From positions 879,345-943,344 of the forward strand of contig MU004237.1 in NCBI GenBank assembly GCA_010405405.1: a stretch of 64,000 nt of DNA. The letters are read 5' to 3'. Below the pieces are notes generated by a model. That model had not been told where the DNA came from. It saw only the letters and a program-made list of their open reading frames with translations, and made no database searches. The DNA is from Microthyrium microscopicum. Lineage: Eukaryota. Made by a program: the position numbers and the translations under genes. The first letter of the stretch is position 1. Every line of letters starts with the position of its first letter. Below are positions 1 to 57,332 of the stretch, in pieces.

Positions 1-1080
1 AATTAGCTAATCTACCTAAATCTAGCTAAGCTAGCTTACTCTAGGCCTAAGGCCTAGTCTAGCTTTAGCTAACCCCTATATATTTAGTAAACTAAAGCGC
101 TAACTATATAAGAGAAAACCCTACTATTATATTCTATATACTAATTTGTACTAAGGCTAATAATATACCCTACTAAGCCCTATTAACCTCCTAAGCTATA
201 AAAGCTTTAGTAGGTTAGGAATAGCTAAATTCTAGGGAGTATCTAGCCCGTTAGTACTTCTCTAGGCATATTATCTATTATGGGGGGGTATATTCTTCTA
301 ATTGGTCTACTACTTTAAGTTCCTAAAGTTGCTAATATTATCGTCCCCAAGGGGCTAAGATTCCTTCCTTGTTATTATGTTAGATTCCTCTATTTGTGCT
401 ATAATACTAAGTCTAAGGCAGCGCCAACGGTCTACTAAAAGCTATCCGTCTATACTATGCTTTGCTTTTAAGCCGTAATCTAAGTCCTTTAGCCTAGCGT
501 ATTCTAGGTTACCTCCTCTAAGTCTGCCAGCTTATTTCTATAGCGCCGTTATGCTAACCTAAAGGTACTATACTTACTAAGTTATAGTGTCCTAAATTTT
601 GTAATTTACTACTATATCTTTTAGTCTAATCTTTACTTTCCGTAACTAGATTTTGGGCTTACTAAGCTAGGGCCGCTTGTCTAATCTAATTGCTAAGAGC
701 TATAAAAGAATTAGCTTTAGTATACTAAATTTGCTACGCTTTAGCGATATTGTAGCTTTATTTATATATAGCTTTGCGTGCCATGTAACTAGTAGCTAGT
801 TTCTAATTATATAATTTTTAACGCTAGTCCGTTATTATTAGTAGGGCTTTAATAAGGATAATCTTATAGCTACATATAGTAGTTACGTAATATAAAAATT
901 TGTACCTTTTACGATATATTAAAAAGAGCTATAGCTCGTCCTCTACACCTACTAAAAAGGAAAGATAAACCTTTTCTAAAAAGGGGTGATTATAGCTTTA
1001 AAAGCAAGGAACGATTACCTTTTTAGGGTAGTAAAGGAGACGGGAATTGAACTTGTGCCTTATGGAAAAGTAATACTAAT

Positions 1081-2976: not shown

Positions 2977-2981
2977 GTTAA

Positions 2982-3299
2982 TGTTACGGACCTCTGCAGA
3001 CTTGCCATAAAGGCGTAGGCATCCTATTACCTCCTTGCTCTCTTTATTCTTATAGTACGCTATAAGAAAGCTCTTTGCTAGTAAACTGCTAAATTAATAT
3101 AAATAATGCCTACCTTCTATTATAATAAGACGAAGCTAAATATAGCTAAGGATAAGAAGGAGAGGTAGCCTTATTAAAAAAAAGATAGAGAGGAGTATAA
3201 GTAAAGAGGTAGATTTAATTTTTAAAGAGATTAAGTATTAGTCTTGTTTTAATACTAGTTTTTAAAATCTATTTTTCTTACTTTAAATTATTCTTTATA
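2982..3299 (+). repeat. 5' LTR of element A
   Basis: Starts TGTTACGG, ends ...TTCTTTATA (RIP of ...CA); collinear with 11424-11741. Confidence 0.95.
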
Positions 3300-5299
3300 A
3301 TTCTAATACTTCTTAACGTACTATATAGTAATAAGTCTAATAGATCCTTATAATAATAAGAGGTATAAGGAACTTTAATAAAAGCTAAAACGAAGGCGAA
3401 GATAAAGATAAAGATTTAGATAATAATTTAGATAATAATTTAGATAATAACTTAAGTTAATATAATAGCCTATTATTATTAATAAACCTAGAAGCTGCTT
3501 TAGCTATTTTTTATATAGTAACGGCTCGAATTAATAAATAAGAATAGACACGTATAGCTAAGATGTAATAGTTCCGTAACGAGATTATAGTTTTATCGCA
3601 AGCTTTTTAATAAAATTCTTCTCTTCCTTCTTGACTAAGAGAACTAAAACCTACTAACTTTACAATCCTTTAATATAAGACTTAATAAAAACTTATCGAC
3701 TAGACTATAGGTATAGAAAACGCTTTCTACTTAGTACTCTCTTAATTCGTTACGTAAGAAAGCTATATTAGATAGGCTAGCTAGTTTATAAGTTCTAACC
3801 TATAAACTTAATAGAATCTAAAAAAGAAGAAGATTAAGCTACTAACTTAGACTTAGGAAAAGTTTATAAAATAGCTTTAATATTAATACGCTTATTCTAC
3901 TATAACTAAACTTTTAGTTACTAAGAAACTTAAAGAAGCTAAGTAGTATTCTACTTAGATTTCTATAGAATTTAACGCCTACTTAAACTTACTAGAGACC
4001 TAACTTAATATTAATATAATTTACGAAAAAGATAAATAATACTTAAAATTCCTTACTAAGCTAATCCTAGAACTATAGAAATAAATTAAATTAATAAAGT
4101 ATATTCTAACTACTAGATTAGATATAGTTAACGCTACTAAACGCTTTTAGTAAATTACTTATAAATGCTTATAAAAAGACTTATTAAATAACGTTAATTC
4201 TTAACTTCTATAATTGAATTATAATCTATAAGGTGGTTAAAGTAAATAATAAGAACGTAAAGGTTATATAGAATATATGCTATTAATTTGCTTACTAGTA
4301 AGTATAAAGCCTAAAAAAGATAGTAAGACGTATAAGGAAATTACTTATTATAATTATAACTTATTTAGACATTATACGAATAAGTATAATAAGCCTCTAT
4401 AAGGCTCTTAGGCTACCTAAAAGTGAGGAGGTTTTTTAAGACATAGAGGCTAGAGAAAGAACCTAAATACTATCTCTTTCTTATTAAGATCTAGAATTGA
4501 CCTAAGAAAAGAGTAAGTATTGCGAAAGTTAAGAACCCTATTCCTATAATACTAGATTAGACTATAAAAACATAAATTTGGATAATAACTAACCTTTCTC
4601 TTACTATAAGAGACTAATCTATAAATGTTCTTTTAAATATTAGTAGTTAAATTAATATTATTAATAAATAATTTATATAATGTTATAGCCTTAAGAAAGT
4701 AACTATAGAAAGCATCTAAGTTATAGATTTTACTAATAATATAATAAGAAATAAATATTATAATACGTATTAGCTATGTTTTTATTATAAAAATTCTTTT
4801 AATATTTATAAGAATATTAAATACTATTTCTTCTCTTTTAATTAAACTAAATATACTTGCCTTGTAGTATAGGGAACTTTTTTATAAAAGAAATATGATA
4901 TTTCTATTTACTTAAGGTAAAAGAAGTGGCTATTTAGGAAAGAGAAGCTAAAATATAAGATTATAAACTAGAATATATTTAAGAAAAAACTACAAAAATA
5001 TAATAAGGTATTTAAACTAACTATAAAATTTAATAAGCACTTATACTTAAATAGTAGAAAGGTAAAGATTTTTAATATTAGCTTTAAGCTAAGCTTGTAG
5101 ATAGATATTAATTTAAAGAATAGACTATCGTAAGAGCTATAGGATTTAGCTTCTTAAGTTAAGGCTAGAGATAAGAATAAACCTATTCTTAAAGGTATTA
5201 AATATACTATTAAGATAACTACGAACCCTTTTTTTAGACTTATTTATAACTTATTAGTAATAGAATTTAAGGCACTATAGGAATACCTTAAGTTAGCCT

Positions 5300-8200
5300 T
5301 TGTAAAAGGTTAGATTTAAGAATTAACTAGCCTAGCTAAAGTATTTATACTCTTTGTGCCTAAGAAAGATAAAAAATTATGACTTTATATAGACTACTAC
5401 CTACTTAATGCGGTTATTATTAAAAACTATTACTTGCTTTTTTTAATAAGTGAGATATTAAATCAACTTAGTAGAATAGTATATTATACTAAGATAAACC
5501 TTAAAGACGCTTATACCTAAATACTTGTTAGAGAATAAGATTAATAAAAGATAGTATTCTATACGTAATACAAATATTATAAATACTAAGTTATGCTTTT
5601 TAGACTTACTAATATTCTAGCTACGTTCTAAGCTTATATTTATAAAGTATTAGTAGAATTCTTAAATATTATTTATATTATCTACTTTAATAATATCTTT
5701 ATTTTTTCTAAAATATATAAAGATTATATTTGTAACGTATGTATTATATTAGAATATTTACTAGCTACTAAGCTTTATATTAATCTTAAAAAGTACTAAT
5801 TTTTTATTAATAAGGTAGAATTCCTTAGTTTTATAGTCTTTATAAAAAGAGTAAAAATAAATCTTAATTAAGTTAAGTCTATTACGAAATAGCTAAAGCT
5901 TAGGAGCTATAATAATATATAAGTATTTATTAGCTTTATAAATTTTTACTATAAGTTTATTAAAAGCTACTCGAAAGTAATAAAACTCTTAATTAACTCG
6001 CTTAAGAATATATAACTTAGAAAGAAATATAAACTTTTTATTTAAATAAAGGAAGTAACGTAAATATTTTGTACGCTTTATATAGCTTTTAGCAAAGTTT
6101 TTATTTTTGTATATTTTAACTTAAAAAAGAAAATCTATTTTAAAACTAACGTATTCTAATATACTATCGTAAGTATCCTTTCTTAGCTATAAAAAGATAG
6201 CTAATAGTATTTTATTACTTTTTAGTTAAAGAAATTAATAAAGGCTAAGATTAACTATTAAACTTATAACTAAAAGCTCCTTATTATTATTAAAGCTATA
6301 GAATATTAGTAATATTACCTTAAGAGTAGTTATTATTTTATTAAGATTTTGACTAATTATAATAACCTAATAAGGTTTATAAAATAGAAAAACTTAAATA
6401 AGTACTAAGCGTATTAGGTAATTATATTAGCAAAGTATAACTTTTATATTAGGTATTAAAGTAGAAAGATAAATCTTATAAATACGTTATTAAGATGACC
6501 TAATTATACTACTATAGAATAAGCTATAAATAACTTACTACCTACTTTTTAGAAGAAACTAAGACTCTTTTTAAAAAAGGAATAGAAAAAGCTAATCTTC
6601 GTAAATAGTTTTAAGTTAATAAAATAACTTACTAGTAAGATACTAATAATAAATAAGTATAACCTTATAGATAAGATGTCTAATATTAAGTACTACTTAA
6701 TACTAAACGTATTAAGAATAGGCAAGATGTCTTATAAATAAATAAGTAGCTAAAATATTATAAATAAAAAAAGCGAAAACTTTTTTAGTTCTTAGAAAGT
6801 AGTTACTACTCTAGACTACGTTTGTATCTTAAGAACTATAGCGAGAGAAGTAATATAAGACTTATATATTATAAATAGAGAAGCTTTAAATACGCTAATT
6901 ACCTTAGTCTAAGTCGTCTAAGATAGTAATAAGGAACTTAAATATATCTAAGAAGTACTTAATACGTAGCTAGAATTTAAAGAGACTTAATAATTAAAGA
7001 ATATTTAATTAGTCTAAAAAGACTACTTCTATTATAAAGGCTAACTATATATACCTTATAAGCCTACCTTAAAAGACAAACTCTTAATAATATACTATAA
7101 TAATCTACTAGTAGAATACTTAGAGGTTTAAGATATTATAAAACTATTCTATAAATAGTTTTACTAGTTAAAAATAAAAAAGGACGTATAAGCGTACATA
7201 AAGACTTACTTAGTTTACTAAAGAATAAAAGTAAGATAGTATTAATTTTATAGTAAGTTAAAGTCTTTATCTTAATTAACTTAACTATAATAAGAAATTA
7301 CTATAGACTTTATTATAAGTTTACTACCTTATAAATATAGACTTATAACGTTTAACGTTATACTAGTAATTATAGATTAGTATACTAAATAAATAAGGTA
7401 TATTAAAACTATAAAAGATATAATTATTAAAAAGCTAGCGAAACTTATAGAAAGAAGAGTTTTCTTAGAAAAAGGTTTATTAGTAAGTATTATATTAAAT
7501 AGAGGATCTATCTTTATAAGTAAATTTTAGACTAAACTATACTAAGTAAGAAAGGTAAAACGTAAGCTATTTATAGCTTAGTATTTATAAACTAATAGCT
7601 AAATTAAGTAATAAAACTTAGTACTAAGATATTACTTATAAGCCTTTACTACTAAAAACTAAACGAATTAGTTAAGCCTCCTACCTATAGTATAATAGGT
7701 AATAAATACGTCTTATAATAAGATACTTAACTATACTCTAAATATAGCTAAAATAGGATATAAACTAACTTTCTTAATAAATCTTTTTATAGACCTTAAA
7801 AATAAGTTTAAAGAAAAAGGAAGCAAGGTAACGATAGTAAAACAAAGAGTAGTAAGAATAAAATAAGACTAAGAAAAGATAGTAGAACGCTAAAAAAAAG
7901 TAGTAGAATACTAAGCTAAGTTTTATAATAAGAAGTATACTCTAATATTATTCTATATAGAAGATAAGGTCCTACTATTAATAAAAAATATTAAACTTAA
8001 ACTACTAAATAAGAAGCTAGCTCCTTACTATATAAAACTATTTAATATCTAAGACATAGTTAGAGAATAAGCTTATTAACTAAACTTTTTAATAAGCTAT
8101 TAAATTTACGACGTTTTCTATATATCTAAACTTAAGCTATATTATTAAAAAGAAGGTTAAGAAGAATTAAAGCTTTTTATAGCTATTAAGCTAAAAGACG

Positions 8201-8400
8201 AAGAAGAATAAGAAGTAAAAACTATTTTAGATAAGAAGAAACGAAAAGGGAAAGTTAAATACTTTATTTATTAACAAAGTTACTTCCTAATTTATAATTT
8301 TTAGAAATAAGAAGAAGATTATAAAAATGTATAAAACTTAATTAAGGTTTTTAAAGAAGTTAGTAGACTTAAGTTTATTATTATAAAGAAAAGAAAAAAA
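5300..8400 (+). pseudogene. pol relic of element A (RT-RNaseH-integrase-chromodomain)
   Basis: LFVPKKD..L.L..DY..LN at ~5350; YFNNIFI (=YLDDILI) at 5683; ETDAS-like at ~6142; H...GH zinc-finger start at ~7095; E*EVKTILD...Y...*..Y chromodomain at ~8205-8340; stops are mostly RIP-type TAA/TAG. Confidence 0.93.
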
Positions 8401-8469
8401 GAAGAATAAAATTATAAAAAAAAATATTATAAGAGAGAGAAAATTTTTATATATTTTTTATTCATTATA

Positions 8470-11011
8470 GAAAAGTAATTAACTAGCAAAATAAAAAATA
8501 AAAAACTAAAAATAGAAATAATAAAAATTATAGCTAGACGAACTATTAATAAGACGTAAATAAAACCTAAATAAAATTAAGGAATCTTATGAGAGACTAG
8601 TAAGCTAGTACTATAAAAAAAGGACCCTTTTTTATAAAAATAGAAGGAGTGGACTATTAGTAAATATAATAAAAAATAAGAATTTTTCTTAAACGCTATA
8701 ACTATAAATAATAAGTTGATAAAAAGGCTAATTCTAAAAGATATTAAAATTAGTAATTCGCGCCTAAAGAAATAAATAAATGTAGTATTTATATAACTAA
8801 AATGTAATCTAATTATTAAACTCTAACTCTATATATTAAGATGCTATAACTTTGAAAGTAAGTATTAGATATTATTAGTTACTCTAAGATTACTAAAAAA
8901 GGAGTACGTAATAGATATAGCTAGGGTAATTAATATGCTATTAGTAAATAGGTAAGTAGGTAAAGGAATATTATGAATTATAAGTGCTATAAGTATAGAA
9001 GAAGGATAAAGATAGCTAAGATTAGTACTAATAGAATTAATATTACTATTTAGGTTATAGTAGGTAGTTATTTTACTAATAGTATAACGTTATTAGAATT
9101 AGTAGAGAGAGTAAGCTATTTTGTTAATATATTAAGCTTAAGCTTAGGTAGCTAAAGAGAAGCTATAAAAAGATAGTATAGTTTTTTTATTAAACTATTT
9201 GGTTTATATACTATTTACTTCTTTGTTCTCGATTTTTTTTATAATAAGTAAATATACTATAGAGCGTAAGATATTAATATTTAGAATAAATTTAGGAGGC
9301 ATATAGGCTTTAAATATAGTAATGTTTTTTCTGTTTTAAACTAAGAAAGATAAGAAGCAAACGTAAGGATAATCGCTTTATATAGGTGGACTACTAATAG
9401 ATAAAAATAACGAAGGGTTATTAATAGTAAGACTTAGCTTTTAGTAAGGATTAAATAGTTTAAAACCTTCTAAGTAGATTCTTATAAACTAGACAAGTAC
9501 TTAAACTTATAATTAAGTATAGAATATAGATAGAAGATAATTCTAAGAATAATAATTAGTAAAAGTATAACTTATAAATAAAATATAAAAAAACCTATAC
9601 TAAGACGCTAAATATTATTAGCTTATTCTAATGTATCTCTAATATAATTAAGTATAACGTAAATATAGAATACTATATCTAAAACTACGAGATAACTATA
9701 GTCTTCTAAGTAACTCTCTATATAATACTAAGCTATAATAAAAGTATTATAGGCTTATTAATAACGTATTAACTTCTTATTATAAATATAGTATATATTA
9801 CTACGCTAATAAAACTTAATAAAAAAACTTAAAGGCATAATAACTATAATAAAACTTATAAAGTTAAGAAATATAAAATAAATATATAAGTAGATTAGAT
9901 TATTTATAACCTTATTAAAGACTATAAATATCTAAATAGAGGATAGTACGTAAGCTATATCTAAGTTACTAATAAAATATTTATAATATTATAATAATAC
10001 TTTTAATAGATATAATAATAATACTTAGTAAAGTTATCTTTATAACTATATATAATACTTTATAAGATATAGCTACTATTAAGACGATAATAGATTATAT
10101 TATTAACAATATTTTATAAATATTAGAAATAATACGAAAAGAGAAGTAAAGTAGGTATAGTTTAAGAATAGAATATAATCTAAATAATATTCTATAAAGG
10201 TATAAGTTAGTAAAAAAATTAGGTAAGTCGCTTATAATATACTTACTATAAAGGCTTACTACTAAGTAGTCTAAGCTATAGAACCTAGGTCTATATCTCT
10301 TAGCTTACTAAGTAACTTATTTAACTTAGACTCCTTACTATCTAAAAATAATATATAAGATAGTATAAGAATACTTTAGTAAGTAATTTACTTCTTAATT
10401 ATAGAACGAGTAGTAAATAGCTATAAAGGCTTTAGTAATAAAGTATTCTTATAACAACGTTTTCTATTAACTTAAGAAATATAGGCTAGTTATAGAATAG
10501 GTTTAGTAGTTAAGTTAACTATTATAATACTAATAAGTACTTAAATAGAGTAAATAAAGTTATTTATATTACGTTAAGCTAAATGAGAAATAAATAGCGA
10601 ATTAGTACTAATAATAATATAGCCTAAAAATAATAAGACGTAAAAAGTTAATAAGCCTTCTTAAGGCTCTAAGAAGGTTACCTAGTTAGTAAGTTAAACT
10701 AAGTTATAATTATATAATTTAAGCTTTTTAAAGACGTATTAAGAATTTTACGGAGTATAAGGAGCAGTAGAATATTAATAAATTATATACTTAGAAGATT
10801 AGCTACTTTACTATTAAGACTATTAGAACTCTTAAAAAGTATAATATATTTTTAGGAAATAATTACTTAGGTTAAGATTAATTAACTACTTACTTTTTTA
10901 TAAATCGCTATTATTAATAAAATTATTATTATTAAAGGAATTAATGTTAATAAGGTTTTAATAAGATAAATTACTACTACGTAAACTACTAGAATAATAA
11001 TAAGAAGATAT
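8470..11011 (-). pseudogene. Relic antisense extra ORF in the 3' region of element A
   Basis: About 3 kb lies between the chromodomain and the 3' LTR. A minus frame from ~11011 reads ISSYYYSSSLRSSNLSY*NLININSFNNNN (restorable to MSS...PIDIDS.DDDD) and is relatively stop-poor; MPPK at 9302. Boundaries are approximate. Confidence 0.5.
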
Positions 11012-11423
11012 TATAAGAGAATAATTAAAATGTTATTAAAATGCACGTTAAAAGACTAAAAGTATTAAAAATAAGTAAAAAGAGTATAAATAGAGTATAA
11101 AAAAGATATAAGTTAAATTAAGAATTTTAAAAAGACGTAGTTTTTAAAAACTTTTAAGATTTTAGATAAGTAATATACTTATAAATTACTTATAAGAAAA
11201 AGAAGTTATAGTATTAAAAAGGTAAAGTATTATAATTTTAAAATATTTTAGTATTATATATACGCGCAATACTATTATAATAAATAGAGTTATTATTACC
11301 TATATAGTAGGTATCATAATAACTCTAAAGGTAAGAATATTATAATTTAAAACTATACCTACTAAAAAAGGAAAGCATAATAGCTAGGTTATTAGGGGTA
11401 ACTTCCTTTAAAGAAAAAGGCTC

Positions 11424-11741
11424 TATTATAAACTCTTATAAACTCGTTATAGAGGTATAAGCATTTTGCTATTTTCTTACTCTCTTTACTCTTATAGTAC
11501 GCTATAAAAAGACTCTTTATTAATAAACTACTAGATTAATATAAATAGTACTTACTTTTTATTATAATAAGACAAAGCTAAATATAGCTAAGGATAAGAA
11601 AGAGAGGTAGTTTTACTAAAAAGAAGATAGAGAGAAGTATAAGTAAAAAGGTAGATTTAATCTTTAGAGAGATTAAGTATTAGTCTTGTCTTGATACTAG
11701 TTCTTAGAATCTATTTCCCTTGCTTTAAACTATCCTTTATA
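11424..11741 (+). repeat. 3' LTR of element A
   Basis: Same length as the 5' LTR; all differences in the first ~40 aligned positions are transitions. Confidence 0.95.
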
Positions 11742-11746
11742 GTTAA

Positions 11747-14700
11747 TAAATCTAGTTAGGTCTTTATTAGGCTTAAGGGCTTTAGATAGTTATAGTTTAT
11801 CTTAAATAAAGTTTAATAAGATATTTATAGTTTTTTTCTACTTTATATTATTTAAGAAGACGTAGTCTAGCCTTTATAAGAGTCTATCTATAGAGTTTAT
11901 CTTTCCTAAATAGTGCTTAATATTAAACTTAAACTTAGTAAAGAAATCTACTTATTTTATATATATAGTAAAGATATTTTAGAACGTATTAAGTAAATAA
12001 AGGTTTATATAATTTATTAGGACTAAGAACTTTAGAATACTATATAAGTACTTATAAAAGACTCTTATAAAGTTAATAATAGCTAGGAACTCTTACTATA
12101 GGGTTCTATAGTAACTCTTAGGTCTTAATAGTTTCCTTAAGTAAAATACTATAGGTTACTATTAGCTCTTTTAGCTTAGCTTAGTTTACTTTTAGCTTAA
12201 AATATTATAGATTACTTACCTAGAGGTATCTATTTCTAAATAAGTTTCTAATATAGGATTATAGTAAGTAAGGATTAGTATATATATAAAGATAGTCTTT
12301 AGGTTATTAAAGAATTAAATAGCTTTAGGAGAGAGGTTAATAGGAACTAATTTTTTATTATATAGCTATTAGTCTTTTAGGGCTTATCCTAGAAGCTTCT
12401 TAGTTAAAGAGTTTAATAGGAAAGTAATATAAAAGAAGTTAGTAATAAAATATTAATAGTAGTTTATAAAGCTAATAAACTTTCTTACTTAGTATATATT
12501 ATATAGCGTTAGCTAATCTATAATTATTATAATCTATTCTAGTTCTACTATAGTATTATTTAAAATTATAATATACTTAAGATACTTAGTTTAGTCTATA
12601 TAGAAGCTATACTTTAATAGCTTAGTATATAACTTAAACTTAATAAGTCTTTTAAGTATCTCTTTTATATATTTAATATAATCTTTTTTATTCTTAAAGA
12701 AAATAAGAATATTATTAAGATAAATAATATAAATTATATTAATAAAGCTATATAGAGCTTAGTTAATATATACTTAGAAAGTAGTAAGAGCATTAGTAAG
12801 CCTAAAAGGTATTATTTAATACTTAAAGAACTTATATTTAGTTTAGAATGCTATCTTCTACTTATTATTAGTATAAATATAGATATAATAATATACTTTA
12901 TAAAGATTTAGGCTTATAAAGAGCTTAGCTCTTAATAGTTAGTTTAATAACTCTTTAATTAGTAGTAAAGTATAGTAGTTCTTAACTATAATATTATTTA
13001 AGCTTTTATAATCTATATATAAATATAAGGTACTATTCTTCTTCTTTATAAAGATAATTAGGGCTTTAATAAAAGACTAAGATTTATAAATAAATTTCTT
13101 CTTAAGATTTCTCTTAAGGTATTTATATAGAATAACTAGTTCTACTTTTAATAGGCTATAAATAGGCTAATAGAGTATAGTTATATCTAGCTTAAGATTA
13201 ATAGCTAAGTCTTATAGACTATATTCTACTAAATTCTATACTTTATTCTTACTAAAGACCTTTATAAGCTTCTTATAGTAATATAGTAAGTCTTATAGGC
13301 TAATATAGTCTAATAAACTTACTAAATACTTAAAGAGCTAAGTAGATCTATCTTAACTTAATTAGAGTAACTTCTTTAAAGAGATAAAGCTAATCTTACT
13401 ATAATAGTTATTTTTTAGATAAATAAAAGATAAAGTCTTAGCTTTAAAGTCTAGTAAGGGATTCTAGTTCTTAAGCTAAGATATTCTTATAATAATTATA
13501 TAATATAGTAAGTTTATAATATAAAATAATACTTTATTAGTCTTTAGAATCCTATTAGAGTTAACTACTATTATTTTAGTAGTTACTACTTTATAGATAG
13601 TTATAGGTATACTATTTAGGTACTTAGCTAACTCTTTTAAGAGATAATATATCTTTAGTTAAAGCTTCTTAGCTAAGGTATAGTTTATAATATTAAAATA
13701 AGTTTTACTATCTATTATTATGCTCTATAGTATATAATCTTAGTCTATTTAATTCTAAGTAGTCCTTTATAAGATAATTTAGTATAATTTTTTTAATTAG
13801 TATACCTTTTTATTTAGAATCTTCTTATTTCTTATTACTTTTAGGACTTAAGTAATAATAACCTTATAGAAGTTACTAAGAAGGTTAAGGACTAGATTAT
13901 TTATAATAGAAGCTATAAGATTCTAGTTAACTACTTTATAGCTTAGTCTTTTCTCTTAATTCTCTTTAGCTTTAAGTTAGAGTAGTTATAGGCTATATAG
14001 CTTACCTTATTATAGTTTTAGTACTTACCTTTATTAGAGTTACTAGGAAATAGCTATTTAACTTTAAGTATTATATTACTCTTTAGTTTATTTAGCTTTA
14101 AAGCCTTATTAAGAAGGCTTAGTTTAGACTTTTTTAACTTATTTCTCTAAGAACCTTATTAAGTCTTATCCTTTAAATTTATAGACGTTAAACGCTATTT
14201 AGAAGATTTACTATCTTTAGTATCTTTCTTAAGAGTAGTTAGTATCTTTTAATTACTAATAAGTCTTAAGTACTTTAAAATATATTAAGATAAGGCTTTT
14301 TTAGCTATCTTAACTATATAGTCTAGGTTAAAAATTATATTATTTTTAAGGTAAGTAGATAGTCTATTACTAAAGAATAATAGGTAAATTAATATATTAT
14401 TAATCTTATACTTATAAAAGAGAAGTATAAGCTTATTAAAGTATTCTTAGAAAGTCTTTTTCTCTATTATAGTAGTTAAGAGGCTCTAAAAAGCCTTATA
14501 ATGCTTCTTAATAGATAGATTAAAGAGTTTAAGAGCTTATTATTCTATAAAGGCCTATATAGGTTTGTATTAGTTTAGTTTAGCTAATTAGGTTTAAAAA
14601 TTAACGTAATTATTCTAGGTAGGTTATATAATCTTCTTATTAAGGTAATTATAGGCTTAGAGGACTACTAAGTATAGGTCCTCTTTATATTTCTTTATAG

Positions 14701-15574
14701 TAAGTATATTAGTTATATTAAAGACTTAATCCTTATACTCTTATAGACTTTTAGCTTTATATATCTATAGTTTATTATTACTATAAGCTAATTTAAAGCT
14801 ATTATATTTAATATAGGCTAAGATAGCTAAGCTAATATTATATTAACTCTATTTATTAATCTATTTAACTAAGTAGAGTTCTTTACGTTTATAGACTATT
14901 TTTATTATTTTAAGTTATTTAATTTTAAGTATATTATATATTTACTATATTTTAGCTTATAGCTATTCTAGCGTCTCTTTTATATTTATTACTAATTCTA
15001 GATAAGCTTATTCTATATTAGTAGAATTACTTATAGGGCTATTTAGTCCTATTAGAGTTAGTATAGCTATATTTAGTATAACTAGATTTAGTCTAGCTAG
15101 TTTTACTTTAGGGGCTTTACCCTTAGGTTTTATTAGTTTGTTACTTATAATTAATTATAGTATTTTAAAGGAAAAAACTTTATAAGTACTTTATTAGTAA
15201 GAAATAATTATAATATTAGAGATTAAAGTTATAAAGTAGGTAAGAAGGTTATAAGATATTTAATAGATTAGATATATAGAAATAGGAATAAGAGTAATTA
15301 CTAAAGAATTATAAAGAGATTCCTTAGCCTCTATCTTATTATTTAGAAACTTCTAAGATTTTTCTCTAAGTTAGAGTAGTCTATCTATAAGCTAAGGTAC
15401 CTTAGAGGTATACTTAGCTACTAATTATAATAGTTAAGAACTTATTAGTTCTTTTAACTATAGAATGTACTTAAAGCTAAAGAAGTAGCTCTACTAGCTT
15501 CTAATAGCTATTAAGCTAAGGTACTTAGGCTATAATACCTATCTTAGAGAGTCTGTTAGGTTTAATTCCTAATA
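11747..15574 (-). mobile_element. Chromoviral Ty3/gypsy element B, 5' part (candidate LTR, gag, protease, RT, RNase H)
   Basis: Minus-strand relics: IYLNNILIF (YLDD) ~12700-12730; PFRLTNA ~12790-12812; *KIAF*T ~12840-12862; protease IDS-like ~13710; CCHC knuckle relic GKY*NYNKVSYIAYN ~13985-14028. Candidate 5' LTR ~15250-15574 begins TATTAGG (=TGTTAGG); its partner LTR was not found in the window. Confidence 0.88.
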
Positions 15575-16818
15575 TCTAGCCCTTTTTAATTATTCCTAAT
15601 TTTATTGTTTTATAGTAGATCTTTATAATCTAATCTAAAAAGTTGACTTTAGTAATACTAGAGACTTTAAGCCTTACTAAATTACTAATAGCCTTTTTAT
15701 ACTAGTACTTATAAGGCTAAAATACTAAGACGTCTAGAGGTTATAGAATCTATAAAGTATAAGGTAATAAAAAGAAGGGAATTATTTTATTATTAAGGTA
15801 AAAGAAGAGGAAATTCTTTATAGTTTAACTCTTATAGCTATTAAGAATTAAGAGCCTAAATTTACTCTTTTAAAACGTCTTTATAGCTTTATTAAAGTGC
15901 TTTATCTAACTAAGAAGGATCTTATTATTTATATAAGCTAATTCTAAAATATTAAGATACTAATTATTAAGTAGGGATATTAAATAAACTTAATCTTTTT
16001 ATACTTTGCTAGATTTTAATTATAGAATAACTTATAGAGGAATATAATTACTAGTAATACTTATATACTCTACTATAGTAATAAGTTTCTAATTTAATTC
16101 CTTTAGAGCTATAATTTATTACCTCTTTTTACTTAAAGTTATAAGAATAATAATACTCTCTTTACTACTAATTTTAATATAGAATCCTCCTTTATTAATA
16201 TTCTAAAGATCTTTAGCCTAAATTCTAAGTCTCTAAAGCTTTCTTTTTAATTTATTATACTAATCTTTTATATCTTTTAGGTCTTTAGCTACTACTTATT
16301 TAAAATCTTTTAGATTATTAGTTTAGAGGGATAATTTAACGTAGAATTGCTTTATAAAGTAGCGCAATTAGTAATCTCTAAGTAGTAAAGGTTTAAAATC
16401 TAGTAGATTATTTAGATAGTCTTTAAGTAACTTATAAGTAGCTATTTTAATTATAAGAATATTCCTATTAATACCTAGCTTATAGAGATCCTTTATAAAT
16501 AAAATAATTGCTTATTCTTTATATTCTTAAAGATATATATTAGCTCTATATTATTTACTTCTTATTTTTACTCCTTAAAAGTAATTATTAAAGGTCTACA
16601 GATTTATACTATATATGCGCGTATATTCTAATTTAGACTTCTAACTATTACGTTTCTATATAGATAAAGCTTTAAGTATAATAATAAGACGTAAATTAAA
16701 ATAATAATATAATAGAGAATATGTAGGGAAATAGGATTAAGAAGATATATTTATTTTAGGCTAATTCTTAGCATTCTGGCGGGTGAACTAGCTAGCGGGT
16801 GAGCTGGCAGGCATCCCC
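15575..16818 (-). mobile_element. Fot1/pogo-like (Tc1/mariner) DNA transposon, 5' portion, RIP-inactivated
   Basis: Minus-strand relic shows an HTH/CENP-B-like N-terminus, *NINKGGF (=WN.DE.GF) at ~16182-16206, LNSYKS* (=LDGH.SH) ~15825-15845 and L*PLDV ~15727-15747. The terminus GGGGATGCC is flanked by TA (16819-16820) and has an internal direct repeat C(C/T)AG(C/T)TCACCCGC. Confidence 0.88.
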
Positions 16819-46301: not shown

Positions 46302-49300
46302 TCACTCGGTTCCAACGATGGGCACATTGGTATTGATAGCGCCGGTAATACCAGCCGTAATGACCAAAGGACCCGCTGCAGCAGTTGCTACAACCCCATC
46401 CATGCCGACAGTATCATCTTCCGCAGCATCGGAATCATTAGCAATGACGTTGCCAGGAAACGTTGGAGGTGCGTTGAGATCTGACTTGAACATGCCTTCT
46501 GGAAGCCATGTACGCTCCTTGCAGAATAAACGAATCTCTTGCTCTTCCTTGGACATTATCTTTCCAGGCTTGACGGTAATATCTCCGATCTCCTGTCGGT
46601 AGTCAAACTCCGCTTGGTGGTAGATTTCGTCTACAACAGTGTTCATTTCTTTCGCAACTTCAGTCCCCAGGATGCCAAGTTTGATTCGAACCTCATTCGC
46701 TGCGTCATGAAACATCACAGTCACCTTGTCTTGAACTGCATTCTCCATGATAGATTTGATCTGTCGCCAAACTCCCTGGCCAGCCGCTGCCGCGCATTGC
46801 TTATAAGCTTGGGCTAATGTCTGCTGTATGGACGGCGCAAACATTCGGTTGGCATTCTTTTGATGTTCAGTTATGACCTCATTCATGTGTGCCTCAGTGA
46901 TCTCTAAGCCATTACGGTGATGCATCATTTGGCTGGCCAGAAGCTCTGTACGGACAGAATTTGTACCATGCTTTCGCACATAACTCGTTACGTCGTCATG
47001 AAACTCCTGGAGCACGAGCTTTGCCTTTTCTTCGAACGACCGAACGACTGCCGGGAGGGCAGTTCCGAAGGCATTCATCCAAGGACGCGCAATCTTCTTG
47101 GTCATTGGTGCCACCAGGGCTTCATTGAAATCAATATCATGGTCGTCGGTACTGTATCTCCCAGCGCGTCTGACAACAGCCCGATACGTCTGGAAATGTA
47201 GCCCACCTTTCGATTGCGGAAGTCCCCAGCCTTTCGCCGTGCTGACTGCCGCAGACTGAGCCACGAAAGAGGCGCTGACATATCGCTTGTATATTGTTTG
47301 CTTGAGTATGCTTTCGAACGCGTCCTTGCTCTCATGAACCTCCTTCTTAAGACTACTTTTCAGCTGATATAGCTTCTTTTCCAGATGCATTGCTGGGGAG
47401 TTGCGCAATCGTTCTTCTGCATCAACACCAGCTCCGTCATTGGCGGCCCATAGCTCCAAGGACGTAACGAGCTTGAGGAAAGAATTCAAGAAACGTCGGG
47501 AGACTGCCATTCTCCCAGATCTCGTCAGCTCTCGACAATGTGCTTGGAGTTGGGGTATCTCAGTCTGCTCCAAGGTTTGGAATCCAACAACTGGAGTTTC
47601 ATTCTGCATTCTACCATTGAGCTGTTGGAAGCCCCAACTTGAGACGCAGTACACGGGCAACGATTTTGCTAGTGCTTCATAATCGTATTGATCCTCATTT
47701 GGGTCGAATGTAGTATCGTCTTTCTCCGATTCTAGTCGTTGGTAGTGCTCTTTCATACCAAGGGCATAATCTGCACGGATTGAATCCTTGGAATATGCAT
47801 TGCGTTTGACAATACAGGTGGTGACTATGCCAGCCTTGATATCACTCATTTCTTTTTGCATTTGACTGATCGAGTTTTGCAACTGAAGATTTCCGGTTAG
47901 TATAAAAGCATTCCATGGGGTCCGTCAACCACATTATTCACAGTAGCTTTGACGGGTAAAACTTACCTCTTTCATGTTCTTCTCGATATCCTTCAGCTCC
48001 GTACGACAAGCGCTCTTCTCGGACTTCAGGTCTTTGACTTTCTCTTCGGCTTCTTCGCCTGTGATAGGAACCCGCTTCAAACTGTTAGTTTCCTTCGGAG
48101 CATAAACAGTCTCTCCCTTCTTAATCTCGTCCGCGAGATCAAGCCACTTATCCAAGTCGTCGTCAACCTCGTCGAACTTGTCTTTACGTCCCTGCTTTTC
48201 CTTCTTTAGCCCTTCGAAATTGGCTTTGGCAGTATTGATCTCTTTCTGACGCTTGCGGCTTTTTTCTCGTTGGGCCGAAATTTCTGGCTCTATCTTCAGG
48301 GATTTGGGCGCTTCGTCGACCGAGATGCGATCCGTCTGAGAGCAGATAAAAGTGACTGCAGAAGCTTGACCATCAAGTAAGAGCTGTGTCTTGAATGCAT
48401 CGCCAAGGAGATTCTTGGCCACTTTGTTGTCAACAGCTCGATGGATACTTGCGACAACCCAGAAGCCGGTGCAGTCTTTGAGCCAATTTTTCATCACAGC
48501 TGCCCGAGCAGCATTGGCGTCCGAGAGCCCGGGACAGTCGGCAATTTCCATTCCAGTTTCCAGAACGGGCGATTTGAGGTACACCCGTACGCATTTGATG
48601 AGCGGCCAATATTCTCCAGGCCACTCGCTTGTGTCAGTTTGAGCCGGCTTCGAGCTTTCGCCTGCCGATTTTTCTTTACTGTCCACATAGTCTGATAGCT
48701 TGCGACGAAACGCTTCCGGCGTTGAATCTTGAATATGCACAACCCGATCAAGGCGTTTGCTTAAGGCAACGTCCGATGCCAAAAATGCGGGAATATCGCT
48801 CAAAGCTCGTTCTATGTCCGTCTATAAGTCGTTAGCCGAACATTCGGTGGCATTTAAAATGGCAATTAATTTATGCGATGGCAATTCACTGCTGCATTAA
48901 CCAAGTATCGAACTTACTTGTTTAGTCAAATGAGGATAGACAGCCTTGAACCTCGCATAAGCCTCTTCCTCTTCCGTGTCTGGGACATTGAAGTTCCGCG
49001 AAAGCCGGCCTTCCTCGAGTAAAATGCTCCCTATCGTTGATAGCTCTTCTGTCCAATCGCTCATTCGCATGAACACAATCGCTCCCTTGAATTTCGCGGC
49101 AGGGTCGTTGCTGTGATTGAAAGCAAAAACCGTTATCACGGCAGTGCAAGCTCGTATGCAATTTGTGGGCGCGAGACTGCTCTATGTTAGACATGAAGCC
49201 AGGCAGCTGCTGATATTGACTTACTGCTCCACCCCCAACAGTGCATTGAGAAGGCTGCTCTTCCCATCTCCTGTACCACCAATCACTCCAATGAGTGTAC

Positions 49301-49908
49301 GGTGTTGTGTCGGTAGATTCATCAATTCTTTGATCGAGACACTCCATCGATTAGCATCAACCCCATTCAATGCTTCCAACTCTTGAATTCGGCTAAGAAG
49401 GGCCGGGAGACAACCTTTGATACGACGTACAGCCTGCTCCATTTCCTCTGGGCGATTGCTGGACTCCAGTTTTGTCAGGTATTGAAGGTTCGACATTTGT
49501 TTGGATTTCGAAATGTCCACGATTTGGCTGTTCTCCCCCACAGCGCGGAGGACAATGAGGCCATCTTTGCAGTGGTCGAATTTGTCCACAGTGGCATAGT
49601 CTGAGCCGCACAAGCCAAATGAATGGAACAATTGGACTCGGTGACCAACCATGTTCTCGCAACGGTTCATAACTTCTGTGATCGAATCATCCTAGGCAAA
49701 ATTAACTCTGTACTGGGAGACATAAACGTGGGCATACCTTTTTGCACTGGAACCAGAGGAAGTCTTCTGCTTGTAAGGTATCCGGAGTAATCTTTTTATT
49801 GTGCTCAGGACGCAGGATGGCAACCTGACAGGAGTCGGTTTCCAAGTATGGTTTTTGTCGCCAACGCTTCGCGGCTTGGCGTAGCTGCTCCGTAATAGCC
49901 GGATCCAT
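46302..49908 (-). CDS. Dynamin-superfamily GTPase (SLIP-GC/NUGGC-like) with coiled coil and helical stalk
   Basis: G1 GGTGDGKSSLLNALL, G2 PTNCIRACTAV, G3 ADCPGLSD, G4 CSQTD, YWPLIKCVRVY; exon 1 49738-49908 splices in frame to 49691; the exact C-terminus is uncertain. Confidence 0.87.
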
Positions 49909-50759: not shown

Positions 50760-51968
50760 TTACCGTGATCCGCCTCCAACCTTCGCTCCAGCTCCTCCAC
50801 CCGCATTAGCTTGAGGTTGAGCAGGCTGAGCCGGCGCGGCAGCAGGACTTCCAGACTGAGCCGGTGGAGCAGTGCCCTGGTTTCCTCCTCCTCCACCACT
50901 ATCTTGCTTCCCAACGACCGCCGACACCAGCTGGCCAGCAGCATTGAAGACAATGTTGACCAACGCATTCAGTGGACCGTACTTGTACGTCTTCTGGATC
51001 AAGTTGTTGGGTAACATTTGACTTTTGCCCGTATATGTCATGTTTTGCTGATAATTTCCTACAATTGAATTGACTGTTTGTCCTGCATCGCTTACAACTT
51101 GTTGCACGATATTTCCCAGATTGTCGATTAAGAAGTTCAACACTGTACCGCCCCGTGTGATAGAACCCAGTAGACCGTCGACTTGACCGATGACATTGTC
51201 TAGGATGTTTGTGACGTTGTTGATTGTCGCGATTAGCAGTGGATTCAGATCCAAGGACTGGAATACACGATTGATGATATCTGCCAAATGGCCTAGACGC
51301 ACGACGAGCTCGAGTTCAGCGCCTACGTCGGAGATGGTGAGGTTTACTTTGGTGATGGAGGCATAAACGCCAGCATTCACCGTGACGAGGTTGGCGACTT
51401 GTGCGTTCAGGTTGATGTCGACTTGTAGGTTGTCAACATCGAGCTCGATACGCTTGACACCAATGGTGGGAACTTGAAGAAGGACATCGGGTGGTGTCAC
51501 TGAGGAAGAAGTTGCGAATGCTGGGAGAGGCTGAGGGCTGAAGGAGTAGGATGAGGTTGGCGAGCTTCTGGTCGATCCTGAAGTCGACGATCCCCCTGGC
51601 TTTGTCGTTGAAGATGGTCCTTTTGGCGCAGAACTTGTTGGTACGGAACTCTTCGGCGCTGATGCTGGTGGTTGTGATCCTGGCGATTGTGCTGGAGGTG
51701 CTGATGCTGGCGGTGCGGAACTGGCCGGTGGTGTCGCAGAGACAGGAGGAGCAGTTGTAGCTGGTGGAGCACTCGCAGGAGGAGGTTGAGTAGTGTCTTC
51801 CACAGCAAGCCGGTTGAAAGTCGATAACGAAGAATAAGTTTCAACTTTCTGATTGCCCCAGTCTACAACAGGGTTATAGCTCTCGGCTCTGGCCGCTGGA
51901 GTATCCTGGGCGATGGTCCTGCCTACAAGCAGGAGAGTAGCAAGAGCTATTATCCTTTGGCCTGCCAT
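50760..51968 (-). CDS. Secreted protein of unknown function (PDV...LDLNP domain), paralog 1
   Basis: Intronless 402-aa ORF; signal peptide, Pro/Ser/Thr linker, PPDVLLQVP...NAGV...RL...SLDLNP domain. Confidence 0.9.
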   Translation of the reverse strand: MAGQRIIALATLLLVGRTIAQDTPAARAESYNPVVDWGNQKVETYSSLSTFNRLAVEDTTQPPPASAPPATTAPPVSATPPASSAPPASAPPAQSPGSQPPASAPKSSVPTSSAPKGPSSTTKPGGSSTSGSTRSSPTSSYSFSPQPLPAFATSSSVTPPDVLLQVPTIGVKRIELDVDNLQVDINLNAQVANLVTVNAGVYASITKVNLTISDVGAELELVVRLGHLADIINRVFQSLDLNPLLIATINNVTNILDNVIGQVDGLLGSITRGGTVLNFLIDNLGNIVQQVVSDAGQTVNSIVGNYQQNMTYTGKSQMLPNNLIQKTYKYGPLNALVNIVFNAAGQLVSAVVGKQDSGGGGGNQGTAPPAQSGSPAAAPAQPAQPQANAGGGAGAKVGGGSR

Positions 51969-52503
51969 CTTGTTGTCTGCGTAAAAGACTGAAGATCAGA
52001 CCAAAAAGAAGTCTTGGAGATTCAAAAAAATCCGGGACGGGAGGGGTGTCGCAATCGGCGTTCCATTTCGAAAATTCCAATGGCACTGACATGGGCATTT
52101 TGATTATATTGCCATATACGGTGGAGGCTCTTCGACCTCTCTTGTCAATGGTCAACTGTAATTCCGAATTGGTTTATGCCAACTTCTTTGGAATGTAGTC
52201 TATTTGGTGCAGGGATTTCCACAAATCATATCCAATCTCAGCCTTGTGGCCGTTTCAAGGATATTGTACTCAATGCAAAAGTCCAACGTCTAGGGCCGGC
52301 TTGCCCATAGTTTTACGTCTACAAGTGAGTGATTGCAGATGAATAGCATATTCCCTTGTACGAATATAGCTAATCAAGTAATTATGCCACTTTCTTTTTC
52401 GCTAGCCCTTTGGTTTTTCGCATCTCACCCATTGCCCACCTCTATCTTGACTGCAGTCTGACGGCATGCTCTGAACACCAAAGACACTGCACACTCAGCC
52501 AAG

Positions 52504-53604
52504 ATGCATAACCGATGGGCGTTCATAATCCTGGCCATCTGCTATCCAGCACTAATAGCAGCTCAATCCACAGCCCAACCTACACCCGCCCAACCAGCGC
52601 CCGGTCCAGCACCAGGCGGTCAAACTCCCTCCCAAGCGTCATCCGCCCAACAACCACAAGCCCAAGGTGACATCCCCACCAATCCAAAAGGCGTTCCCAA
52701 AGGATCCGGCGTCGCAGGAAACTCCACCCGCCCACCACCGAAAGGCGGCAAAGGCCAAGATCCCGCCACAGGCTACTTCGGCTATGACCTGCAGCAAAAA
52801 GGCGATCCCAACTCAACACACTATGAGACCGCCAACACCAACAACACCGACGACCGCAATGTCACCATGTTCGCCGAGCCAGACGTCCACCTAAACGCCT
52901 CCGTGCACGTTGGCGAAATTTTGCTAGAAGTGCTGAACATCACCGCAAAAGTCAACCTCGACGCCGAAGTCCGCGGCCTAGTAAAGTTCAACGCCGGTGT
53001 CAACGCGCACATTGACCGCGTTCGTCTACTGATCCAAGGAGTCGAGGCGCGAGTGCTGCTGGAAGCACGGTTAGGCAATCTGGTACAAATCGTCAGTGAT
53101 GTACTCGACAGTCTTGATTTGAACCCTATTATCGCCACACTGGCCAATGATGTCAATAAGATTGTGAATACGACGGTTGGGCAGTTGACGGGGCCACCGC
53201 CGAAGCAGAAAATTCAGAAGCGGTCGAGTAGGATTGACTATAATATTTTATACTCTGTCAACGATTATGGTGGGAACACGCATACGAATCGGATACTGGA
53301 GCAAAATGGCGAGATTGTGGATGAGTACTTGGATAACCAGGGCAATCGACATGGGGTGGAAGTCATCGGATACTATGAGCGGGATATGGAGTTCAATGGG
53401 CATGATTTCCCTATGTCGAGGAATGGGCAAGCTGTGAGGGAGCGGGAGTATGTGTATGCGCCGTTTCCGGGGTTGAGTGTGGTGAGTGCGGTGTATATAA
53501 CCGATGATGGGAAGGTGATTGGGACGCAAGTGATTAGTGAGAGTTTTGGCGGTGGAACAACGTCGATCGAAAATAAGGAAGAAAAGAAGCTGAGGCAAAG
53601 GTAG
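52504..53604 (+). CDS. Secreted protein of unknown function (PDV...LDLNP domain), paralog 2
   Basis: Intronless 366-aa ORF; signal peptide, Pro/Gln linker, EPDVHLNASV...NAGV...RL...SLDLNP domain. Confidence 0.9.
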   Translation: MHNRWAFIILAICYPALIAAQSTAQPTPAQPAPGPAPGGQTPSQASSAQQPQAQGDIPTNPKGVPKGSGVAGNSTRPPPKGGKGQDPATGYFGYDLQQKGDPNSTHYETANTNNTDDRNVTMFAEPDVHLNASVHVGEILLEVLNITAKVNLDAEVRGLVKFNAGVNAHIDRVRLLIQGVEARVLLEARLGNLVQIVSDVLDSLDLNPIIATLANDVNKIVNTTVGQLTGPPPKQKIQKRSSRIDYNILYSVNDYGGNTHTNRILEQNGEIVDEYLDNQGNRHGVEVIGYYERDMEFNGHDFPMSRNGQAVREREYVYAPFPGLSVVSAVYITDDGKVIGTQVISESFGGGTTSIENKEEKKLRQR

Positions 53605-53838: not shown

Positions 53839-55566
53839 TCATGGTGCGTCGTCAAACACCAACATACACTTCATCCCCTTGGCTACAAGCGCAAAGTGAT
53901 CCGTATGCTCCATATCATCATGAGTTTGCTCATTTTCAACGCGGACTTGGAGTTTCGAGATGATTCTTGCAACCATAATACGAATATTATTTGTCGCCAT
54001 TTGTTGACCAAGACAAGCTCGCGCTCCTTTACCCCATACCAATATGGCGTCCTGCATATCTCGAGTTCCATATTCAGATCCACCCCAGCGCGTTGGGTCA
54101 AAGGTATCGGGATTTTTGAACACTTCTGGATTTCTTTGGCTGGTGAAGGGACCGACGCTTAGGTAAACCTATCAAATATCAGTTCTGTGTCACCTTGAGG
54201 TTTGGAATCCTTACATTGCCAGGTACGTAGAGACCATCAATCGTTGCTCCCTCTGGTGGTGTGACTCGAGGTAGACCAGACATGACAGGTGGATGAAGTC
54301 GTAGAACTTCATGAATGCAGCCATTCAGGAGTGGGAGGTCTCTCAATAGTTGCATTGGGTAGCCTTTGCCATCGACATCTGCTTCGCGTAGCTCGGCTCT
54401 AACCTTTTCTTGCCACTCAGGGTGACGGGAAAATTCGTACATGAGGTAAGTCATTGCGTTGCTGGTTGTATCGGTTGCCGCAAAAGTGAAGCCGGTACAT
54501 TCGTTTTGAATAACCTGATCGTCAACGGGTTTGCCTCCAGTGACACGATCACCAACGAGCATTTTAGTCAGAATGTCGCGTTTTCCAGAGTCTCGACCGT
54601 TGCGTTCAATATATGAGGCTATTGCCTTTTTCGCGTACTGCAGATTTCCATTAGCGCTGTCTGGACTAAGAAAGGATCTATACTTGCATTGTCTAAGTAA
54701 TCGGAAGAATCTACTAGATCTTTCAGTGTTAGAGGGAGGAAACTTCTTGTTGCTTTAAGCAATGCGAGGACTGGGCTCATGGTTTCTCGAATCATATAAT
54801 GAAGGAATGCAAAGTCGACCATATGTGAGAACTTCTTTGCACCAGGATCTCCATTGAGACCGCCAAATCGTTTACCAAAGAACAATTCACCTATTATATA
54901 TCAGTAAGCGTCCTTTGCTGACAGCATTGAGAACCAACCAGCAAGATCGAGATTCAGCATTCGATCGTAGTACAACAGATCAATCGGCTCTCCCTTATGA
55001 GCATTGACATTGTCAAAGAGTTTTCCAGAAAGCTCTTGCAAAGAAGGTTCCAGTTCCAGTAGAGTTTGTTTCGAAAACAAGTGAGTAAATCGCTTCTTCA
55101 TCTCTCGATGTCGCGGTTCTCTCTGCAAGAACATTTGACCAGTATTCCCAAACCGATTGTACACGTATGAAATTGGGCAGGCGGTTGGACCAGCGTAGAT
55201 ATCTCGAATGGCATTGTTGGTCATGAACGAGAGCTCGTCAGGGCCAACTTGTACAACAGGTCCATATTTCTTGTGCAACTCATATTCTTCACGATGGCGA
55301 TATCCTGCGAGATCTCGTAGACTGTATGGCAGACCGGTATATTTTGCCCATTTTGGACCAGGAATGTTCATTCCCCGAAGCGGCGATGTGACGATTGTGA
55401 TGATGGGCTGTCATAAATCAGCTTTTGTACACGTAATGGGTTTCTTGTCCATGGGAAAGGCAAATCTTACTCTGACAATGATGTAGACCAGCAACGCGCC
55501 GGCCAGCAAATTGATATAGGTGCGAACCTGAGTAAACTCAGAACGAAGAGCTTCGGCGCCATCCAT
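53839..55566 (-). CDS. Cytochrome P450 monooxygenase
   Basis: N-terminal TM then IPGP; I-helix AATDTT; EVLR (ExxR); FDPTRW; heme motif WGKGARACLG; four introns. Confidence 0.95.
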
Positions 55567-56609: not shown

Positions 56610-57332
56610 ATGCCATCCCAGCACGACATCCTCCTCCGCCTAACCCCCGACGCCCCCACCCGCGTCCTCTCCGCCCTCTCCACCTCCCCCAACCCATCAA
56701 CCCTCGCAAGCGCCGCCGACTCCAACGGCTACACGCTAATCCACGCCGCCGCCTCGTACGCCCATCTCGACATGTTACGCACACTCGTACGGACCTATGG
56801 TGTCAACGTAAACACGCGTGACAACGATGGGCAGACACCGCTATTCCATGCGGAAACGCTGGAGGTCGCGAAGTGTCTGGTGGAGGAGTTGGGTGCGGAT
56901 GTGGGGGTGGTGGATGGGGAGGGGTTGAGTGTGTTGGATAGTGCGAGGGCGGATGGGGAGGGGGAGGGGTTGGTGGGGTATTTGGAGGGTGTGGTTGGTC
57001 GGGCTGGAGCGAGGAATGGGATGATAGAGGGCGGTGGTGAGAACGTAAATGGAGAGAGAGAGGCAGAGGCGGTGGAAGTGCCGGTGCAGACGGAGGCGTT
57101 GGCGCGGACGCGAGTACCGGAGAATGTGCAGGTGAATTTTGGCACGATGCCTGAGTTACCGCCGTCTGAGATGGCGGATCCGCGGATTCGTGCGAAGATT
57201 GAGGAGTTGGCGGCGCGCGGGGACTTTGAGAGTGAGGAGGCGCAGAGGGAGTTGAGGAATTTGGTGGCGGAGGTGGTGACGGGGATACAGGAGGAGGGAC
57301 CGGACCGATCGAGAAGGAGGACGGGTGATTGA
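56610..57332 (+). CDS. Ankyrin repeat protein (resembles the yeast YCR051W family)
   Basis: DSNGYTLIHAAASY, VNTRDNDGQTPLFHAET; acidic C-terminus ELRNLV. Confidence 0.88.
   Translation: MPSQHDILLRLTPDAPTRVLSALSTSPNPSTLASAADSNGYTLIHAAASYAHLDMLRTLVRTYGVNVNTRDNDGQTPLFHAETLEVAKCLVEELGADVGVVDGEGLSVLDSARADGEGEGLVGYLEGVVGRAGARNGMIEGGGENVNGEREAEAVEVPVQTEALARTRVPENVQVNFGTMPELPPSEMADPRIRAKIEELAARGDFESEEAQRELRNLVAEVVTGIQEEGPDRSRRRTGD

Follow-up and report, generated by a model that had tools for sequence, protein, structure and literature searches.

In proteins of the TULIP group (BPI/LBP/CETP, Takeout/JHBP and SMP), antiparallel strands that are long and bulged, and hydrophobic on the inner face, lead into a long helix, and the proteins are secreted and glycosylated. 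GvpA and the hydrophobins also have amphipathic beta structure, turned towards a hydrophobic phase. The gvp operon of S. coelicolor is controlled by SigB, according to PMC5733086. Pairs of divergent fungal genes are known from two further systems: the aegerolysin/MACPF bicomponent pairs PlyA/PlyB, Asp-HS/Asp-HSB, NigA2/NigB1 and BlyA/BlyB are given in 5'-5' orientation in PMC9505663, and PMC10346447 describes AvrLm10A/AvrLm10B and SIX5/Avr2 as co-expressed pairs, several of which bind each other.

The locus described here is found in a window of 64,000 nucleotides, by which is meant the whole stretch of Microthyrium microscopicum contig MU004237.1 that was analysed, from a host genome of 37 Mb. 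Two genes, here called A and B, stand head to head with 535 bp between their starts, and the features of the pair are as follows, with signal peptides called by hydropathy and by eye.

50760..51968, minus strand: gene A, the type-A member, 402 aa in one open frame
51909..51968, minus strand: predicted signal peptide of A, residues 1-20, from hydropathy and similar N-termini in homologues
51495..51908, minus strand: low-complexity linker of A, of a length that varies among homologues
51294..51491, minus strand: long amphipathic beta-hairpin of A, residues 160-225, with Pro-bulge register and sequon N-L-T at residue 209, from the AF2 model and covariation
51168..51293, minus strand: amphipathic helices of A around the invariant D-x-N-P motif, from the AF2 model
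50904..51167, minus strand: C-terminal beta-meander of A, two four-stranded units, N/Q-rich and near neutral
51969..52503, no strand: shared upstream region of A and B, 535 bp, putatively a bidirectional promoter
52504..53604, plus strand: gene B, the type-B member, 366 aa in one open frame
52504..52563, plus strand: predicted signal peptide of B, residues 1-20, from hydropathy
52771..52842, plus strand: B-specific N-terminal segment G-Y-x-G-Y-x-L...G-D-P...Y-E-T, from the consensus of the B alignment
52879..53073, plus strand: long amphipathic beta-hairpin of B, residues 126-190, with sequons N-A-S and N-I-T, from the AF2 model and covariation
53074..53217, plus strand: amphipathic helices and linker of B, from the AF2 model
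53218..53223, plus strand: Lys-Arg of B, residues 239-240, a candidate Kex2-type site from linker comparison
53233..53547, plus strand: acidic C-terminal beta-meander of B, homologous to that of A, from the AF2 model and profile alignment

That the two are divergent paralogues 535 bp apart was proposed in an initial annotation made from the sequence, and the open reading frames, BLASTP (27% identity over 313 columns, E 6e-25) and the alignment of the two family profiles (207 columns, probability 100%, E 1.3e-44, both shared domains covered) agree on this, with all of the A and B motifs it quoted found at matching places. Composition counts also agree with its distinction between a neutral N/Q-rich C-terminal domain in A and an acidic one preceded by KR in B, the A domain (86 aa) having 2 D/E, 4 K/R and 19 N/Q and that of B (106 aa) having 17 D/E, 7 K/R and a pI of 4.4. 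The linker of A, which it described as Pro-rich, is rich in Ser, Pro, Ala and Thr and not in Pro alone. The same annotation set an intronless pair against mostly intron-bearing neighbours. Both genes are indeed single frames, and contigs of run X1, which is only guessed to be RNA, span A and B without a joint, but the ankyrin-repeat neighbour (56610-57332, plus strand, with a high GC3 of 0.73) is also a single ORF. Nor is the lack of introns a distinctive trait of the family, the core being interrupted in 10 of the 37 A and 5 of the 37 B representatives, and intron absence is thus no argument on origin. The GC content of both genes is that of the host.

The surroundings of the pair within the window can be described briefly. 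A cytochrome P450 gene lies at 54179-55471 (minus strand), its four introns confirmed by joints of run X1, in which one contig skips all four. A dynamin-like GTPase gene with DUF7605 is found at 46302-49670 (minus strand) as three separate ORFs, with one X1 contig crossing 46000-50121 without a splice joint, and it may be that the transcript is unspliced there, that the contig is DNA or that the gene is broken. Positions 1-16500 form an AT-rich block (GC 22.5%, TpA/ApT 1.71, (CpA+TpG)/(ApC+GpT) 0.12), which is the signature of RIP-mutated repeats.

The AlphaFold2 model of each core consists of a very long hairpin followed by one helix or two and then a beta-meander at the C-terminus, with mean pLDDT of 77 for A and 68 for B, pTM of 0.45 and 0.43, and the B hairpin at just 50-70. 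The monomer models each have a single open hairpin and their fold-search matches are filled by the C-domain, one unit of which in either protein is similar to a propeller blade, the scores being ones that common arrangements attain as well. In an alignment of 468 distinct rows (effective number 139) nine of the top 60 covarying pairs, the first three among them, lie on one antiparallel ladder with i+j of 67-69, the remaining list being noisy, and this ladder argues for two strands of approximately 33 residues. Over the same 468 rows mean hydropathy alternates along the full length of the hairpin, with regular register shifts, and strand 1 of B is one residue shorter than that of A. Sequons at polar positions are near-invariant, being present in 105 of 106 rows at column 50 of A and in 109 and 112 of 114 rows at columns 6 and 21 of B. 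Such sequons suggest that the polar face points outward, and thus a hydrophobic face of approximately 100 Angstrom would have to be buried. Cysteine occurs after residue 30 in 6/121 A and 17/121 B proteins, at no position conserved in either family, and the mature A and B chains of the window have none; a GPI-like tail was found in neither protein. Of 121 B proteins 110 had linkers that could be parsed, all with Arg and 60 with KR or RR, which is found in 0/108 parsed linkers of A, and cleavage of B at KR by a Kex2-type protease is suggested as a candidate.

Within the same genome a second A/B pair is found on another contig (C13), again divergent and 585 bp apart, with core identities to the first of 66% for the A type and 54% for the B type, although the two cassettes are not each other's nearest relatives. 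Adjoining this second pair is a dynamin-family gene (Dynamin_N, Dynamin_M and GED; locus L005, 1348-3491, minus strand), a type of neighbour not seen in common with other A/B loci among the 37 representatives, and downstream of its B there is a 238-aa hydrophilic ORF rich in Ser, Asn and Thr (8242-8958, plus strand), which has no Pfam match and a hydrophilin-like composition. Searching metagenome contigs with the A alignment gave 142 confirmed stretches, the best 80 of which were kept; as the sample was anchored on A it covers B only where B is beside A. B lies upstream on the opposite strand at 50 of the 80 loci, the remaining 30 ending within 1,316 bp upstream, and among these best 80 of 142 stretches none had B in tandem or tail-to-tail with A. 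Where at least 1.5 kb of upstream sequence was present a head-to-head B was found in 44/44 loci, or 32/32 once collapsed at 90% identity. The divergent pairing pointed out in the initial annotation is borne out by the second pair and by these 44 loci as a conserved arrangement and not a chance one, the old duplication it proposed is likewise supported, and in none of the 32 non-redundant loci is A an unlinked singleton. Start-to-start distances range from 380 to 1,153 bp with a median of 646 in 33 of 37 representative pairs, three of the other four being without a usable start and one over the filter. No strong motif was common to the 33 intergenic regions, the commonest 7-mer occurring in only 10 of them, and no flanking gene was common to more than two of the 37 loci, which argues that the A/B pair itself is the unit that is kept. 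Consecutive tags or accessions, in which orientation is not visible, are carried by A and B in Hyphodiscus (D0Z07_4264/4265), Bifiguratus (BZG36_05548/05549), Xylographa bjoerkii (MMC18_007028/007027), Tricladium (KAH8687620/621) and many strains of Friedmanniomyces. The pair of the mucoromycete Bifiguratus adelaidae (P0057, P0144) is 56% and 69% identical to the ascomycete proteins and lies on a 21-kb contig, either by transfer or as contamination; its B model also includes a PF05544 domain, which is probably a gene-model artefact.

Searches with A and B gave 790 and 824 matches respectively at E<=0.001, and 846 were obtained in a search of 50% representatives. All of the named homologues among the 120 matches listed per search are hypothetical or uncharacterised, save two automatic labels, in line with an uncharacterised family. 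Named members come from many classes of Pezizomycotina, from Mycena, Bifiguratus and a chytrid, and also from the amoebozoan Cavostelium and two bdelloid rotifers; lichens and saprotrophs are among the fungi that carry the family, which bacteria have as well. The rotifer homologues (P0306, P0392 and P0396) are candidates for horizontally acquired genes, and some have two repeats per gene model. Two such models carry short- and long-register repeats in one chain, and these may be true fusions or joined neighbours. One rotifer homologue has the automatic UniRef name 'lipid-binding serum glycoprotein N-terminal domain', which points towards the TULIP group but is a label and not a test.

Amongst bacteria, the family is matched in at least 28/401 genomes of Actinomycetota and, with one query, in 4/301 of Acidobacteriota, and copies are also carried on two Deinococcus plasmids and one Streptomyces plasmid. 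Tandem paralogues are found in genomes G003, G172, G229 and G507. No signal peptide is present in the actinobacterial forms, which have apolipoprotein-like repeats as well as E3-binding domains, and usually two paralogues share a cluster with CsbD and ParA. This cluster is conserved (L120-L132): its proteins are Gln-rich or have E3-binding domains or apolipoprotein-like repeats, CsbD and ParA accompany them, a tyrosine recombinase is often included, and a glutamate-synthase-like gene marks the end. Other neighbours of bacterial homologues are SRPBCC, HSP20, topoisomerase IB and, at just one annotated locus, gas-vesicle genes of the gvpA/J, gvpL/F and gvpK types. A sigma-B-like pattern is upstream of 10/38 family genes and 18/330 others (Fisher p 1.4e-4), in genomes that are related to one another.

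A second bacterial family, here called C, travels with the hairpin family; it is undescribed, has a core of 75-115 aa and no Pfam match, and is found at L120-L134, L008, L009, L139, L148-L153 and L167:8880, being unannotated on the Streptomyces plasmid record. This small partner is present in 21/401 actinobacterial genomes, 20 of them among the 28 that are family-positive, several of which supplied the query. It lies within 1 kb of the family gene in 5/5 Acidobacteriota loci, where both have secretion-like N-termini. C starts with a short register like that of B, but sequence comparison does not establish that the two are homologous (E of approximately 0.02 over 15 columns, with 1/40 shuffles as high). 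At each of the two Deinococcus plasmid loci just one secreted copy is present, and C is absent from the sequence read there; together with the near-identical long-register copies of many bacteria these suggest that the hairpin may self-assemble. Both of these plasmids also have, tail-to-tail with the family gene, a conserved hypothetical secreted protein of 168 aa (L166 7884-8390, L168 6798-7304).

In an unrooted tree of 85 rows and 93 columns, in which most row labels were assigned by resemblance, fungal A forms a clade of 19 rows (support 100/99) and fungal B one of 21 rows (100/98). The register of strand 1 is long and Pro-containing in 103/103 A rows and short in 113/113 B rows, differences of this kind are held across Asco- and Basidiomycota, and A is 64-84% identical to its best 119 matches. 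By sequence, A and B belong to two distinct and ancient clades, and the differences between them are fixed. A group of 31 bacterial-type rows (94/96, not starred) stands apart from every fungal row, with no clear placement of other eukaryotes. A tree constrained to unite Actinobacteria with A and B is worse by 51.5 log units with p-AU of 0.055, and such a grouping is neither formally rejected nor supported. The initial annotation had mentioned similar proteins in Actinobacteria and suggested a horizontal origin: the homologues are real, but an actinobacterial origin is not supported, with the bacterial rows apart and the actinobacterial forms lacking signal peptides. The patchy range suggests old transfers, in either direction.

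The explanation that is tentatively favoured, at a little under an even chance, is that A and B are co-secreted and form a hetero-oligomer with their hydrophobic faces buried around a putative lipid cargo, in the manner of a TULIP-type tube made from halves. The shared upstream region would drive both genes, and both proteins would enter the ER and be N-glycosylated on the polar face of the hairpin. A lone hairpin of approximately 100 Angstrom with one wholly hydrophobic face would be unstable, and A and B hairpins may thus pair edge to edge, with the one-residue difference in register favouring A-B over A-A or B-B contacts. The bulged sheet and the helices that follow could then curl into a tube or trough, with lipid or other hydrophobic cargo held inside. 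The C-terminal beta-meanders would act as binding heads, and cleavage at the Arg/KR linker may detach or release that of B. If the bacterial homologues are a guide, the likely setting would be protection of the cell surface in stress or dormancy, although the stress link is bacterial, comes from related genomes and is presumed for fungi. A stoichiometric, co-expressed hetero-oligomer had already been suggested, and the anatomy suits an oligomer with a buried hydrophobic face, but binding and co-expression are presumed. Against such a hetero-oligomer, many bacteria use near-identical long-register copies, and linkage alone would also fit proteins that are co-regulated and act apart.

This last possibility, in which A and B each form their own homo-oligomer in one process, draws on the fact that bidirectional promoters keep genes linked without any binding, and single-type bacterial copies do exist. 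It is nevertheless decidedly unlikely, as the differences in register, sequon, C-domain charge and cleavage site are fixed and complementary across Asco- and Basidiomycota, both types occur inside one rotifer gene model and the entire cassette is duplicated in this genome. It is also possible, though rather unlikely, that A and B make an open amphipathic sheet or fibre, either a coat on air, wax or a lipid body or a two-layer fibre with a hydrophobic core between proteins. The same strict amphipathicity and polar-face glycans would suit such a coat, as would actinobacterial homologues with long apolipoprotein-like repeats, one of them beside gvp-type genes. However, gas-vesicle genes are beside only that one bacterial locus, there is no hydrophobin cysteine pattern, a coat has no obvious need for two fixed subunit types and the regular register shifts suggest a sheet that is coiled and not flat.

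Long amphipathic hairpins with a cleavable linker are typical of beta-pore formers, and a two-component pore-forming or membrane-attacking toxin of the aegerolysin/MACPF kind, with B activated by Kex2-type cleavage, has also to be considered. The cassette moves among unrelated neighbourhoods, dynamin-like genes are near both loci of this genome, and fungal bicomponent toxins are likewise 5'-5' pairs (PMC9505663). Yet the lumen of a pore would have to hold the polar face with its near-invariant N-glycans, a point that weakens the pore-forming idea of the initial annotation, and the hydrophobic face of approximately 33 residues per strand is three times the span of a bilayer. Furthermore, there is no aegerolysin or MACPF profile match for A, B or among the families listed for the alignment members, the actinobacterial homologues are cytoplasmic and A is highly conserved, unlike most conflict proteins, which leaves a toxin unlikely to the point of being improbable.

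This self-contained and highly conserved cassette is present in hundreds of fungal genomes, where its products are annotated as hypothetical proteins and nothing more. Should they form a tube that holds lipid or a shell on a surface, this would be a new fungal extracellular assembly, linked to a bacterial stress cluster and to rotifers. A broader proposal, possible but doubtful, is that of a cross-kingdom class of lipid-holding tubes or shells made from unlike half subunits, each one a single amphipathic hairpin of 100 Angstrom. In Actinobacteria the class would be cytoplasmic and under stress-sigma control, in Acidobacteriota it would be secreted together with a small partner, and in fungi it would be fixed as an obligate A/B pair on one bidirectional promoter. 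Were this true, it could represent a split tube that still exists and is either ancestral or analogous to that of the TULIP proteins, or else, alongside the hydrophobins, a new kind of assembly outside the cell in filamentous fungi.

No paper on the family was found in the literature searched. The arrangement is of a known kind, a divergent two-component secreted pair; for the family of proteins, and for the assembly it probably forms, the sources searched gave no description. Like A and B, the aegerolysin/MACPF systems have two fungal 5'-5' genes for one system, but their partners are unrelated proteins of known families whereas A and B are paralogues with neither profile, no Pfam match to these domains being found for A or B or among the top families listed for the alignment members. 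AvrLm10A/AvrLm10B and SIX5/Avr2 are also divergent genes for secreted proteins with several pairs per genome; these however encode effectors of plant pathogens that are small, show cysteine patterns and vary in their partners, whereas the A and B proteins are of 280-400 aa (402 and 366 aa in the window), almost cysteine-free, lack the AvrLm10/SIX5 cysteine pattern and are always paired with each other. Compared with GvpA the hairpin is approximately three times longer and there is an extra C-terminal domain; no family protein matches PF00741, which does match a neighbouring gene in L007, and the eight-cysteine pattern of hydrophobins is absent from the A and B families. The actinobacterial homologues share the hairpin core, but are cytoplasmic, with amphipathic repeats, E3-binding tails and co-directional clusters, whereas the fungal forms are secreted, predicted to be glycosylated and divided into two fixed types, A and B. 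No TULIP profile (BPI, JHBP or other) was matched by the window proteins or the rotifer homologues, nor does one appear among the top 25 families listed for 137 and 133 alignment members, and whilst a TULIP protein has the whole tube in one chain, A and B each provide one hairpin and helix per chain.
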